Below are positions 32,171-38,709 of a DNA stretch of 64,000 nucleotides, piece after piece. The notes under the pieces were generated by a model. The model saw nothing but the letters and a program-made list of their open reading frames with translations. It ran no database searches and was not told where the DNA came from. The DNA comes from a candidate division FCPU426 bacterium. Its GTDB lineage: Bacteria > Oederibacteriota > Muellerivitia > Muellerivitales > Muellerivitaceae. How positions within the stretch are numbered: position 1 is the stretch's first letter; each line of letters begins with the position of its first letter. Location: positions 32,001 through 96,000 of the forward strand of contig CAWKAR010000049.1 of the NCBI GenBank assembly GCA_963847625.1, in the 5' to 3' direction. A program made the position numbers and the translations under genes.

Positions 32171-33016
32171 TCATGGGGCGAACTCCGCGGCCAGGAAAGT
32201 GTGATCCGATGGTTTTTCCAGGCCCCGGGGCTTGGTGTCGATCCAAATCTTTTTCAACCGCCCGGCCATGGGGGGGGTTCCCAGGATGAAGTCGATCCTC
32301 CATCCCAGGTTGCGCTTGAAGGTATCGGGCTGGCGGAAATCCCAAAAGGTGTAATGCCCCGGCCCCTTCTCCTTTTCCCGGAACAGGTCCGTCCACTTCC
32401 CTTCCATGGTTTCCCTCAGCGCGTTCCGGGCGTCGATATGGAAGCAGGGGTGGTCCCGGTTCCCTTCCGGGTTGTTCAGGTCGATTTCCTCGGGTGCCAC
32501 GTTCAGGTCCCCCATCCAGAGGGCCGGCTGGCTTAAGGGCACTTCCTTATTAAAAAACTTTTTCAGGTCAGCCAGGAACTTGAGCTTGTAGCGGTATTTT
32601 TCGGACTCGATATCGAAGCCCTGGGGCACGTAGGTGTTGATGAGTCTCACGCCCTCGTAATCTCCCATCAGGAACCGGGCCTGCTCCTCGGGGTCGCCGG
32701 GGTAAAGGCGGTTCACCACGTTTTGAAAGGGCTTTTTGGAAATGAATGCCACGCCGTTGTAGCTTTTTTGCCCGTGGAAAACCACGTTCCATCCCGCGGC
32801 TTCGATGACATCCCTTGGGAACTCATGGTCCTGCACCTTGGTTTCCTGAACGGCCAGGACATCGGGCCTCTCCTTTTTCAGCCAGTCCAAAACGATGCCC
32901 ATCCGGGCCCGCAGGGAATTGGCGTTGAAGGTTGCGATTTTGAGTGATCCTGAAACGGCACCATTGGATTTGGTCTTAGGCTTTGTTTTTTTCGGCATTA
33001 GAACCCTCTTCTTCAT
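32171..33016 (-). CDS. xth: Exodeoxyribonuclease III
   Basis: KIATFNANSLR, VQETK, YNGVA, YVPQG, GDLNVA, GWRIDFIL, SDH. Confidence 0.95.
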   Translation of the reverse strand: MKKRVLMPKKTKPKTKSNGAVSGSLKIATFNANSLRARMGIVLDWLKKERPDVLAVQETKVQDHEFPRDVIEAAGWNVVFHGQKSYNGVAFISKKPFQNVVNRLYPGDPEEQARFLMGDYEGVRLINTYVPQGFDIESEKYRYKLKFLADLKKFFNKEVPLSQPALWMGDLNVAPEEIDLNNPEGNRDHPCFHIDARNALRETMEGKWTDLFREKEKGPGHYTFWDFRQPDTFKRNLGWRIDFILGTPPMAGRLKKIWIDTKPRGLEKPSDHTFLAAEFAP

Positions 33017-33122
33017 GAGCCGCGGTCGTTATGAGAATTAAAAAACATAAAAATCTTTTCGCCACGGATTCAGGGGATACATGGGATGAACCCAAGACCC
33101 ATCAAACCCATTCGCGGGAAAA

Positions 33123-33608
33123 CTACTTTTTTAACCAATCTTCCCGCGCGGAAATGCGCCTGACTTGGAGTTCGGGTTTTCCGAAATTCAAAAGCAGGCA
33201 AACCTCGAAACCCGTTGCCTTGAGGTAGTTCAGACACTGCGCATAATGCACATTATCCAAAGCCTGGACAGCTTTCAATTCCACAAGAACTTTTTCTTCC
33301 ACCAGCAAATCGGCAACATATTCCCCGACCAACACATCACGATATTTGATTTCCACTGGTTTTTGTTGCGTCACTTTTACGCCGATATGACGCAATTCCA
33401 CAGCCAAAGCGTTCTCATAAACTTTTTCCAAAAAACCGCTTCCCAAGGTGTTCATGACCGTATACGCGCAACCGATGATTTTTTCGGTGATATCATTGAA
33501 TGCGAATGTTTGGGTTGAAATATTTTCTTGGTTTAAATCCACCCTTTTATCCCCATGTTTCTTGGCTACTACGCCGTTCTCTTCAATGTTTTTTTTCCTG
33601 TTGTACAA
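33123..33608 (-). CDS. GxxExxY protein (PD-(D/E)XK nuclease superfamily)
   Basis: GSGFLEKVYENAL, ADLLVE..VELKA, AQCLNYLKATG...LLLNFG. The true start may lie downstream of 33608. Confidence 0.92.
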   Translation of the reverse strand: MYNRKKNIEENGVVAKKHGDKRVDLNQENISTQTFAFNDITEKIIGCAYTVMNTLGSGFLEKVYENALAVELRHIGVKVTQQKPVEIKYRDVLVGEYVADLLVEEKVLVELKAVQALDNVHYAQCLNYLKATGFEVCLLLNFGKPELQVRRISAREDWLKK

Positions 33609-33797
33609 AAAATTGCGTTTTTTTCTTTGCCTTTATCCATCCCCTGCATGCCGTGGTTAAATGCCTTTTTGTTAGGTTGAAATTTATCCCATATTTCCCC
33701 TGCATCCGTGGCTAAAATTCCATTTCCTTTGGGTGGTTTTTCTTTGCTTAAACCTATCCCATGTATCCCCCTGAATCCGTGGCTAGCATTCTTTGTC

Positions 33798-34103
33798 TCA
33801 GCTTGTCTCGTAATCCACAGCCGCGCGGGTGTCGGCGATCTTCTGGACGAACCCGGCCGCCTTCTGGTGTTCGGGATGGTTCTGGTATTGTTCCAGGTCT
33901 TCCCGTGTGCGGAAAGCCGAAACCAATACCACGTCGTAACCCGTCCCGGATGGTTCCACCTGGAATCCCACTTCCAATTCCTCGATTTGCGGGATGAAAC
34001 CCCGCAAGGCTTCCAGCATATCCCGGAATTTCAAAGCGTTCTCATTTTTGGAGGCGCCTTCGGCCCGGTCTTTCAATTTCCACATCACGATATGCTTGAT
34101 CAC
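33798..34103 (-). CDS. Dabb-family (stress-responsive A/B barrel) protein
   Basis: MIKHIVMWKLK...IPQIEELEVG...YDVVLVSAF...YQNHPEH...VDYE. Confidence 0.9.
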   Translation of the reverse strand: MIKHIVMWKLKDRAEGASKNENALKFRDMLEALRGFIPQIEELEVGFQVEPSGTGYDVVLVSAFRTREDLEQYQNHPEHQKAAGFVQKIADTRAAVDYETS

Positions 34104-34665
34104 TTTAAACCCCTTCTATTCCTTATATGGGTGGGTTTCTTTGCCTCAAACCGTCCCATGAATCTCCCTGAATCCTTGGCCACTTCGCCTTCTGAAGAAG
34201 ACACATGTTAAAACACTTTGAGCACCGTTTGCCATAGTGGTTCTTTACACACCTGTCCAAAATAAACCTAGCCACGGATGCATGGGATTCATGGGATTTA
34301 AAAACACAAATATTTAAAGCTTTTTTTATGGTCTATCCGAGTGCATTCCCTGAATCCGTGGCAAAGGACTTGGTTTTGCTTAACGCCTTTTAGATTAAAA
34401 AATTCCTGATTTTATTTATCTTTGTTACCTGGATTTTGTTTAATTTGAACAGCTATGGGTTCCTTACTTTCCAAAGGAAACCGCCTGCTCCTTTTTGGGC
34501 TTTAAACCCGGCTGGAAAAGGCCTAATTTAGCGGGCTTTTCCAAAGGCTCTATCGAAACCAGGATAAAAAAAATTAACCCCGCTCCACCCTTTGCTTTAA
34601 GGGGCGGGGGTGATTTTATAAAGTCACTTCCTTATAGTTAAGGATCAAACGGGGAGAAAAATCAA

Positions 34666-35472
34666 ATGGGTTTGTTGAGCGGAAAGAAAGCTTTCATTTT
34701 CGGCGTGGCCAACGACCGGTCCATCGCCTGGGGCATCGCCCAGGCCTTCCACCGGGAAGGGGCCGAGCTGGGTTTCAACTTCCTGGGGGAGGCCTTGGAA
34801 AAAAGGGTCCGGCCACTGGCGGAATCGGTCGGGGCCAAGCTCATCCTTCCCTGCGACGTCTCCAAGGACGACCAGATCCAGGCCCTTTACCGCGAAGTGG
34901 AGAAAACCTGGGGAAAACTCGACATCCTGGTGCATTGCATCGCCTTCGCCAACAAGGACGAGCTCTCCGGCGCTTTTTCCGCCACCAGCCGCGCGGGTTT
35001 CCACCTCGCCCTGGACATCTCGGCTTACAGCCTGATCGCCATCACCCGCCCCGCCCTTCCCCTTTTCAACCCGGGCGGGAGCATCATCACCCTCACTTAC
35101 TACGGCTCCGAGAAGGTCATCCCCAACTACAACGTCATGGGAGTGGCCAAGGCCGCCCTGGAAAGCTCCGTAAGGTACCTGGCCAACGACTTGGGGCCCC
35201 GCGGCATCCGGGTCAACGCCATCTCCGCCGGGGCCATCAAGACCCTGGCCGCCTCCGGCGTGGAAGGCTTCAAGACCATGCTGAAAACCTCGGAAGGATT
35301 GACTCCCCTGAAGCGTAACGTCACCCAGGAGGAGGTGGGCAAGACCGCCCTGTACCTGGCCAGTGATTTGGCCTCCGGTGTAACGGGGGACGTGATCTAC
35401 GTGGATGCGGGCGCCAACATCATCGGAATGTATTTTAACGAGAAGAAAGAAGATGCTCCGCCGAAAGCTTAA
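34666..35472 (+). CDS. fabI: Enoyl-ACP reductase
   Basis: GVANDRSIAWGIA, TLTYYGSEKVIPNYNVMGVAKAALE, VNAISAGAIKTLAA. Confidence 0.95.
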   Translation: MGLLSGKKAFIFGVANDRSIAWGIAQAFHREGAELGFNFLGEALEKRVRPLAESVGAKLILPCDVSKDDQIQALYREVEKTWGKLDILVHCIAFANKDELSGAFSATSRAGFHLALDISAYSLIAITRPALPLFNPGGSIITLTYYGSEKVIPNYNVMGVAKAALESSVRYLANDLGPRGIRVNAISAGAIKTLAASGVEGFKTMLKTSEGLTPLKRNVTQEEVGKTALYLASDLASGVTGDVIYVDAGANIIGMYFNEKKEDAPPKA

Positions 35473-35718
35473 AACCCAGCCGTGAATGACCCTTTCTTTC
35501 TATAAAATCCCTAAAAAATCTCTAGCCACAGATGCATGGGATTCAAGGGATTTATTTAAATTCAAAATTGAGAATTTATAATGCATTCATGTGGTTTAGA
35601 TGAATTTTTTGGCCCATCTAAATGCATCCCCTGAATCCGTGGCCAAGCCATGTTTTTGCTTTACGCCTTTTAAACTTAACCCCCTGATCTTAATTATCTT
35701 TGTTCCATGTATTTTGTT

Positions 35719-36093
35719 TTATTTGAAACTCCCGGCAGGTTCCCAAATCGAACAATAACTTCTGGTTTCAACCTTTTCCGCCGGGAGCTTTCGCAAGGTG
35801 ATTTTCAGGGGTGTCTCGGAAAGAGCCATAGACTCTGCCGTGTGCGTTTTCAATGTTGCCCGTCCCCTGGGCGTGAATCCCAACCTGTTTGGCGCGAGCC
35901 CATAGTCCAGGTTCAATTCCTCGGAAGAAACCCTCTCAAAACGAAGCCGGTGGAAACCCGAGAAATCCAACGGCCGCCCCAGGTCCACGGCGAAGGCTTG
36001 AAGCTCAGCCGCCTGCTGGGGCCATTCCCTCTTCTCCAGGAAAAACATTTGGGTCAGCGCTAAAATTTCGGTCAATTCTTTTTTCCAACTCAT
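35719..36093 (-). CDS. Hypothetical protein downstream of radC
   Basis: 124-aa ORF with AAGGGGGG RBS-like sequence, co-oriented 30 nt after radC. No motif recognised. Confidence 0.55.
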   Translation of the reverse strand: MSWKKELTEILALTQMFFLEKREWPQQAAELQAFAVDLGRPLDFSGFHRLRFERVSSEELNLDYGLAPNRLGFTPRGRATLKTHTAESMALSETPLKITLRKLPAEKVETRSYCSIWEPAGSFK

Positions 36094-37761: not shown

Positions 37762-38250
37762 ATGTCCTTTACGTCTTCATCCACCTTAGTCCGGGAGGCT
37801 CCGCTTCCCTACGGCTCCAACCCCCTCGCCAACCCGGTTTTCGAGGTTTCCCTCAAGACATCCGGAACCACGGGTCCCTTAAAAGACCTGCACAATGCCT
37901 ATCGGCTGGTTCAAGCCCTCCTTCAATGGGAAATCCAGGGAAATTGTGTCCTCTTGGACTTCGCCCTATGGCCGCAAGGGGTTTTTGCGCGGGTCTCCCT
38001 CAAAAAGGGCTCTTCTCTTTCAGAATTCCTGGGGTTCCTCCGGGAAAAATCAACGCCCCCGGGCCGGCCGCCTTTGGATTATTGGGAGGATGAATTGACC
38101 TGGATTCGCCTTGTGCCGACGGAAAACCTGGAGGATTCGACCAACCGGTTTCTGCAAACCGCGGACCGGATCAGGGGGGAAATGGAACGTTCCCGCGGTT
38201 TTTCCCCCAGCCTCTTTTTTTTCTACCGGAATCCCCAATTGGGGAAATAA
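37762..38250 (+). CDS. Hypothetical protein, possibly an inactive Y1/HUH (RAYT/IS200-like) transposase fold
   Basis: Strong AAGGAGG RBS; LLDFALWPQGVF...SLSEFLGFLREKST...YWEDE spacing resembles Y1 transposases. Confidence 0.6.
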   Translation: MSFTSSSTLVREAPLPYGSNPLANPVFEVSLKTSGTTGPLKDLHNAYRLVQALLQWEIQGNCVLLDFALWPQGVFARVSLKKGSSLSEFLGFLREKSTPPGRPPLDYWEDELTWIRLVPTENLEDSTNRFLQTADRIRGEMERSRGFSPSLFFFYRNPQLGK

Positions 38251-38277: not shown

Positions 38278-38709
38278 TTAAACAATCTCCGGGAAAACCT
38301 GTGGAATCCCTGTCATTTCCTTCAACTTGATAATAATTGATTTCGGCATTCCTAAAACCACCCCGGGGGCTTTTTGAAAATTCACGAGAACCCTCTTATA
38401 AAAGGGGCCCTCCACTTCCCGGGCCGAAATGTCCTTCCAGGGAATGTATAGGGGGGCATGCCCCGTCTTGATGAAGTTGACGGCCTTGAGGGATAGGCCT
38501 TCACTGTCGGCCCCCAACTGGAGGGAAAAACCGTAGTTGACGATTCCCATCCGTCCCGAACCCAATAGGATCTTTCCTTTAAACGGGCCTGGCGCCGGGT
38601 AAACCTTCGCCAGGGTGGACCATACCCCCAGACGGGCGACCATGGGGCCGGTGCCGATGAGGATAACCACGACGGTGATAAGCAGAACCGGGATGAAATA
38701 GGGGGGCAT
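38278..38709 (-). CDS. Hypothetical membrane-anchored protein
   Basis: N-terminal TM segment, W..LA..Y and PLYIPW.DI motifs; GGAG upstream. Confidence 0.7.
   Translation of the reverse strand: MPPYFIPVLLITVVVILIGTGPMVARLGVWSTLAKVYPAPGPFKGKILLGSGRMGIVNYGFSLQLGADSEGLSLKAVNFIKTGHAPLYIPWKDISAREVEGPFYKRVLVNFQKAPGVVLGMPKSIIIKLKEMTGIPQVFPEIV

Follow-up and report, generated by a model that had tools for sequence, protein, structure and literature searches.

A GxxExxY-family nuclease gene enclosed by inverted arms of its own type as the candidate core of a repeat-replicating system

We analyzed a 64,000-nucleotide stretch of DNA (hereafter the window) from a candidate division FCPU426 bacterium, in which a gene of the GxxExxY family (PF13366), encoding a predicted nuclease, lies between xth and a Dabb gene and is enclosed by inverted repeats (Table 1). 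An initial annotation, made from the sequence alone, had proposed here a system resembling repetitive extragenic palindromic (REP) sequences and their REP-associated tyrosine transposases (RAYTs), and most of its description of the locus held. Profile matches identify both neighbors as stated, followed by fabI and radC in a profile search of the window open reading frames (ORFs), and the cassette is AT-rich (43% GC vs. 56% for the window). The sequence and a repeat finder returned the inverted pair around the gene with its one-G difference, the three reverse copies by the gene's 5′ end, two of them degenerate, and, in the next intergenic gaps, a single arm and two convergent pairs, so that all ten copies listed earlier were found. 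Elsewhere in the 64 kb no other copy occurs at up to three mismatches, as had been said, and four isolated matches at four mismatches look like chance. The ~28-bp repeat had to be redefined: the inverted pairing stands, while a single arm is not a 28-bp palindrome and consists of two to four tandem 7-nt units.

The longest frame of the GxxExxY gene spans 33123-33608 on the minus strand. Judged from homolog starts, translation likely begins at the GTG at 33542, within the last degenerate arm, and residues are numbered from this codon. An in-frame ATG comes from the left arm in 48 of 122 family loci; this arm often brings the gene's start codon and thereby serves as a translation start too, in the window at 33537-33566.

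Table 1. Features of the GxxExxY locus and its surroundings (window coordinates)
Feature	Position	Strand	Basis
Right arm, downstream of gene cassette, three phased units	33061..33087	+	sequence, repeat finder
GxxExxY / PF13366 nuclease gene, 139 aa from inferred GTG start	33123..33542	-	profile matches
Helix-1 N16, T19; G36-x-x-E39-x-x-Y42; D78; E88-x-K90; Q102-x3-Y106	in GxxExxY gene 33123..33542	-	
Degenerate upstream arm, overlaps inferred start codon	33537..33566	-	sequence, homolog-start comparison
Degenerate upstream arm	33635..33656	-	
Upstream arm	33686..33712	-	
Outermost (left) upstream arm, directly past Dabb stop codon; inverted partner of 33061, one extra G	33756..33783	-	
Lone degenerate arm upstream of Dabb	34153..34180	-	
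Gene-less element, ~210 bp; convergent arms 34271-34297(+), 34335-34362(-) and conserved outer sequence, which ends in a second, shorter inverted motif	34248..34457	.	
Gene-less element past fabI; arms 35525-35551(+), 35616-35643(-) and conserved tail	35525..35727	.	
xth, flanking host gene outside element	32171..33016	-	
Dabb gene, flanking host gene outside element	33798..34103	-	

The protein matches TIGR04256 with 146.3 bits (cut-off 35) and PF13366 with 143.8 bits (cut-off 22), and no transposase or other family in Pfam or NCBIfam. Its predicted structure (mean predicted local distance difference test score, pLDDT, 93) has a long N-terminal helix. Foldseek placed lambda exonuclease (E 6.6e-4), LHK-Exo, Cas4 (1.7e-3) and AddAB in the top ranks, and the best VIA-align match was R.SwaI (Z 8.9, root-mean-square deviation 3.0, 116 aligned), the others also being PD-(D/E)XK folds. 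The modeled protein has a PD-(D/E)XK core fold with the catalytic D and (D/E)xK, and nuclease activity is predicted. The D and ExK residues previously reported as intact are present. In all of 147 sequences G36, E39, D78, E88, Q102 and N119 are invariant, the Y of GxxExxY and the catalytic K are each conserved in at least 90%, and the ratio of nonsynonymous to synonymous substitution rates lies at 0.04-0.09 in the seven pairs, out of 21, that were unsaturated; the active site is intact and under purifying selection. The Q-x3-Y signature is presumably the RecB/Cas4-family motif. Close homologs are present across many phyla, with up to eight matches per genome in the source phylum and often several types in one genome. 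They occur in few plasmid records (7 of 72,556) and were absent from the phage collection searched (0 of 50,697), and IMG/VR returned two loci. A protein atlas search matched only the family itself, and the one match in a PDB sequence search was spurious. Four matches lie inside long open frames, L340 (G113:C7, 1062 aa), L399 (G204:C36, 594), L145 (G017:C29, 526) and L378 (G175:C11, 432), possibly as in-frame insertions or fusions.

The repeats are not confined to this locus. In the source genome (G000; G001 is a same-genus relative and further G-numbers are other genomes compared), the 14-nt core has 125 matches, against 7 in one dinucleotide Markov control, and 121 arms pass a stricter filter, grouped in 74 clusters of which 72 are intergenic (outside crude ORF calls). 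These counts may be one pair too high, because C4:12509 and C12:2211 share an identical element with its flanks and possibly represent a duplicated assembly segment. Genome-wide spread does not refute a RAYT-like reading, because a system of the type formed by REP doublets (REPINs) and RAYTs predicts such spread. Adjacent arm pairs are convergent in 39 of 47 cases, 23 of these 39 measure 92-98 bp, and pairs mostly span 92-175 bp. The single GxxExxY gene of the genome sits at its densest arm cluster, in line with the comparison of repeat density and gene position suggested at the outset: with a looser pattern (241 uncontrolled matches genome-wide) the 2.7 kb at the gene hold nine arms and the next best interval six. 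Across family loci an arm is built of two to four phased 7-base units of the form C-R-C-N-R-A-K, with spacings of 8, 9 and 10 nt in 82, 68 and 195 of the 426 intervals counted (6-25 nt range). Single arms form no hairpin, folding no better than shuffles (median -1.0 kcal/mol, z 0.17, n=232), and arm pairs can fold at -14 to -21 kcal/mol (DNA parameters).

Other repeats occur in the same places. Many arms are interrupted at fixed points by an inserted double-hairpin element of ~75 nt, with two to three bases apparently repeated (G000 C27:196174, C39:167898, C59:1825 and others; G001 L198, L210, L213 and L214; both L020 arms). Arms also contain or adjoin heptamer tandem repeats (62 double units across the genome) and further hairpin repeats, which gives multi-family mosaics like bacterial interspersed mosaic elements, for example at G000 C3:31198-39122, C21:27618 and C34:103457. 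Hairpin repeats with 37 matches genome-wide occur at G000 C24 ~49.3-49.5 kb, and presumably resemble Ssn-type SRM motifs.

Arms of this kind accompany the gene family-wide, as the initial annotation had anticipated. A first set of 181 loci, from the source phylum and 80 named genomes, yielded 154 distinct full-length ones with at least 100 nt of flanking sequence, and we scored an arm pair as an inverted match of at least 30 between the 250 nt upstream and the 250 nt downstream. Such a pair was found in 133 of the 154 loci, compared with 19 of 600 long ORFs sampled from 2230 in G000, 32 of the 154 loci when matched in direct orientation, and 10% among non-cognate pairs. In a second set (166 loci, 144 new and full-length, 136 with usable flanks) the pair was present in 100 of 136. 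Moreover, the co-phylogeny of repeat and protein that had been suggested was borne out: arm similarity climbs with protein identity (Spearman 0.45, 0 of 300 permutations), and unit type tracks the protein tree, along which unit base 7 changes 2 times (shuffles 34) and base 5 changes 5 times (shuffles 31) among 104 labelled loci. The remaining 50 loci are unlabelled, including that of the window, whose second unit deviates from the pattern.

An association also exists in trans. The repeat pattern of the window never exceeds 3 matches per genome in 55 genomes from outside the source family, and has 0-117 inside it. Within the family, median repeat counts with and without a matching intact gene were 115 and 15 (n 9 and 18), 29 and 6 (n 10 and 16), and 68.5 and 4 (n 8 and 11) for three matching gene-repeat types (p 0.001-0.003), with gene types assigned by eye and two to four ambiguous genomes excluded per type. 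None of six non-matching combinations was significant (all p>0.12).

Asn and Thr are residues whose side chains often recognize bases in the major groove. A column scan, run in each of two deep clades separately, linked helix-1 residue 16 to unit base 4 and residue 19 to unit base 5, and the association persists using only the arm past the stop codon. Predictions were written before the second set was analyzed, which provided 65 labelled held-out loci. There, 18 of 19 loci with Asn had A (12 of 33 with other residues, a contrast chosen post hoc) and 40 of 41 with Thr had G (10 of 22 with others); each was the top column of its scan. Disjoint close pairs, which pool training and held-out loci with branch independence not guaranteed, gave 20 same, 2 opposite and 16 tied for Asn-A, and 10, 0 and 13 for Thr-G. 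Base 7 matches markers of the deep clades (Leu-G 19/20, Phe-T 29/41) and is inseparable from ancestry. For the window protein with its Thr19 the prediction holds: 120 of 121 arms have G at base 5, a result that the search pattern partly imposes. What appears to stand of the residue 16 rule is that Asn goes with A and other residues mostly with non-A.

The site between Dabb and xth holds the gene in some genomes and lacks it in others. The gene occupies it in G001 as in G000, and all four other-genus relatives examined (G002, G016, G063, G065) have Dabb adjoining xth with no nuclease gene between, which are the empty sites that the initial annotation had proposed to look for; G063 carries a gene-less pair of another type there. 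In G013 and G021 a closely related gene follows the homolog of ORF 35719-36093, where the window has the gene-less pair 35525/35643; the full cassette junction is seen on both sides in G013, with fabI opposite, and on the upstream side only in G021. One junction thus exists in gene-carrying and gene-less forms and the gene has changed place, in one direction or the other. Three further close homologs share a third site. Among 57 family cassettes with both neighbors homologous in G000, the neighbors are adjacent there in 49, at 26 sites including Dabb-xth. Arm remnants at some of these sites show that cassettes were lost as well as gained. Remnant arms of other GxxExxY types lie at G000 C16:34011-34101, C34:15898-15943 and C25:177364-177702, where relatives hold full cassettes, which suggests that this lineage lost cassettes in the past.

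Gene-less elements are polymorphic between the sister species. Among 25 orthologous junctions, 16 were filled only in G001, 1 only in G000 and 6 in both, with 2 unclear; the junctions were picked from G001 copies among the matches listed, so "filled in G001" is true by construction. At L204 (G001:C4:117600-120800) an IS-like (insertion sequence-like) transposase ORF of ~900 bp lies beside an arm pair, and the junction is 24 bp long in G000. Three window ORFs, 35719-36093(-), 37762-38250(+) and 38278-38709(-), have no Pfam or NCBIfam match, the first being conserved downstream of radC in G013 and G021. In three sequencing runs contigs covered the window only piecewise and no near-identical strain was found; two contig joints linking the 34.3 kb and 35.6 kb elements were set aside as most likely derived from other repeat copies.

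We lean slightly towards a two-part selfish system, in which the GxxExxY nuclease would bind and cut its own arms and repair would copy arm pairs and, rarely, the cassette. Its parts would be one GxxExxY gene between inverted arms and the ~70 gene-less arm clusters elsewhere. The protein would bind the 7-base units that make up its own type of arm, several copies aligning on units phased at 8-10 bp, probably in double-stranded DNA or a paired stem, with bases 4 and 5 of a unit read by helix-1 residues 16 and 19. A cut at the arms or close by would start the copying, and host repair would then place arm pairs, and on rare occasions the complete gene cassette, at new intergenic positions. As judged from sequence comparison, it is likely that the protein reads its own arms, reasonably likely that it cuts at them, and a little better than an even chance that it is itself the mobilizer. 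GxxExxY may, at somewhat below even chances, represent an undescribed and very widespread class of repeat-replicating selfish elements with a minimal Cas4/RecB-type nuclease, a helix-1 code, and mobilization that would not use HUH, DDE or recombinase chemistry.

Several points weigh against such a system. Physical linkage of gene and arms makes the cis co-phylogeny partly trivial, and by itself this co-phylogeny does not prove recognition. The trans comparison concerns the source family, whose related genomes are not independent, and window-type repeats are abundant without a matching gene in G011 (45) and G022 (38). Beyond the window type, G066 has 152 repeats with no GxxExxY gene found in a genome that is 89% complete, and G022 has 123 without the matching gene. 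Moreover, G001 has 94 matches yet its gene is frameshifted in the assembly. As for the code, an Asp-C pairing seen in 26 of 31 first-set loci failed on held-out loci (1/9 by strict labels; 3/8 by looser ones, metagenome subset) and was rejected, and an Ala/Gly-A prediction had one test case only. Although the window protein has Asn16, 92 of its 121 arms carry G at base 4 and 24 carry A, and the treekit independent-pairs test was not significant, with only two to three well-supported pairs. Regarding mobility, the spreading unit in G000 often measures ~210-250 bp and reaches past the arms, truncated forms also occurring. No target-site duplication or sharp arm-end boundary was resolved between G001 and G000, which are only ~80-87% identical, so that their intergenic DNA is too diverged to reveal a duplication.

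The strongest rival, which we nevertheless consider unlikely, is that the protein binds and cuts its arms, as SsnA does NTS, to control recombination, DNA uptake or its own expression, and that the gene-less copies are moved by gene conversion or another enzyme, namely a transposase of IS or RAYT type that uses the outer inverted motif. Many copies indeed stop sharply at this second short motif, ~24 bp and 95 bp past the arms, which another enzyme could use; repeats persist in genomes lacking a matching gene, other repeat families are nested in and around arms, and the available part of the Ssn study shows cutting by SsnA and no mobilization (PMC11893778). However, inspection by eye found the outer motif beside arms or arm remnants and saw none flanking another gene, the flank-to-flank match in other lineages is mostly the arms alone, and repeat abundance tracks the matching GxxExxY gene and not non-matching ones. 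If the arms were instead passengers inherited with the gene, as promoter, start or terminator signals or simple repeats that the protein does not recognize, physical linkage would account for the cis co-phylogeny, and the in-frame ATG supplied by many left arms is in keeping with this. We hold this to be highly improbable: the right arm, past the stop codon, matches the left arm and follows the helix-1 residues, the trans association is type-specific, and ~120 copies are dispersed in G000.

It is also rather improbable that the arms act at the RNA level, pairing around the ORF in the transcript in the manner of an rRNA intervening sequence, with gene-less pairs as RNA stems and a protein that acts on RNA or is incidental. 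Arm pairs can fold, as described above, family cassettes are co-directional with both neighbors in 54 of 70 cases against a crude 57% baseline, and arm mismatches favor sense-strand G-U by 132 to 89. Yet, counted by locus, the wobble bias lacks significance (42 to 30, p=0.19), co-direction falls to 34 of 61 in a broad sample, gene-less elements have no orientation bias relative to host genes (19 to 25), no Rfam match was obtained at E<=1, and pairing alone leaves the covariation of residues and bases unexplained. For the window locus, an rRNA intervening sequence proper was rejected because the locus lies between protein genes.

For PF13366, a common family without an assigned function, our results provide a candidate cognate DNA substrate that can be read from the flanks of each gene, together with a candidate specificity code and a direct assay. 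Should the two-part system hold, abundant intergenic repeats in many understudied phyla would be explained, and the family would offer a natural library of small nucleases with predictable specificity. We found no published description of a GxxExxY-repeat system in a search of main texts from largely open-access journals. The available parts of two works naming the family (PMC3424549, 10.1101/2021.01.26.428298) give neither a function nor a link to repeats; the former describes PF13366 as of unknown function with multiple transfers, and lists PD-(D/E)XK proteins in mobile elements, TnsA and YhgA/Rpn-like, a precedent for the fold in transposition. The ShiLan element, an HNH insertion in a phage methylase (PMC11855218, as far as available), is unrelated.

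The comparison with known systems, drawn from the available parts of the cited works, starts with REPIN-RAYT (10.1101/2021.07.10.451892). Shared are a single chromosomal gene in G000, ~100-bp extragenic inverted doublets genome-wide, possibly long residence at one site across genera, rarity on plasmids and no finding in phages. Vertical inheritance at one site describes part of the data, namely one copy in G000 and the same site in G001, while other genera have different sites and several types can occur in one genome. GxxExxY differs in its PD-(D/E)XK fold, which is not that of an HUH/tyrosine transposase, in arms made of phased direct units where RAYT repeats are short palindromes, in the several types often present per genome, in a gene that changed site, and in close homologs in many phyla. 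The REP/RAYT-like reading of the initial annotation fits all tests that were possible; the arms are not REP-like palindromes. Ssn with NTS/SRM (PMC11893778) likewise has a small single-domain nuclease gene with its own repeat on both sides, many dispersed copies and homolog-specific repeat variants; Ssn, for which cutting specific to single-stranded DNA was demonstrated, is GIY-YIG whereas GxxExxY is PD-(D/E)XK, and SRMs are hairpins whereas single GxxExxY arms are not. TIRtrons (PMC3733652) resemble the cassette in carrying a gene within terminal inverted repeats that have no relation to REPs and are found as dimers and clusters as well, but their TIRYTs retain the HUH motif and catalytic tyrosine, and the GxxExxY protein lies outside that group. 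IS elements and their miniature inverted-repeat derivatives (MITEs) also show terminal inverted repeats around one gene plus gene-less forms; the GxxExxY system has no DDE transposase, no multiple identical gene copies in G000 and no resolved target duplication. The palindrome or hairpin that characterizes REPIN-RAYT and Ssn-SRM repeats is absent from the GxxExxY arms. Taken together, the system works like REPIN-RAYT, Ssn-SRM and TIRtrons but has a different enzyme from those that define them. If the two-part reading is true, the design of one nuclease gene and a repeat population, known from RAYT and Ssn, would have evolved around a third nuclease fold and with repeats that are not palindromes, as a third independent route to a REPIN-like system.

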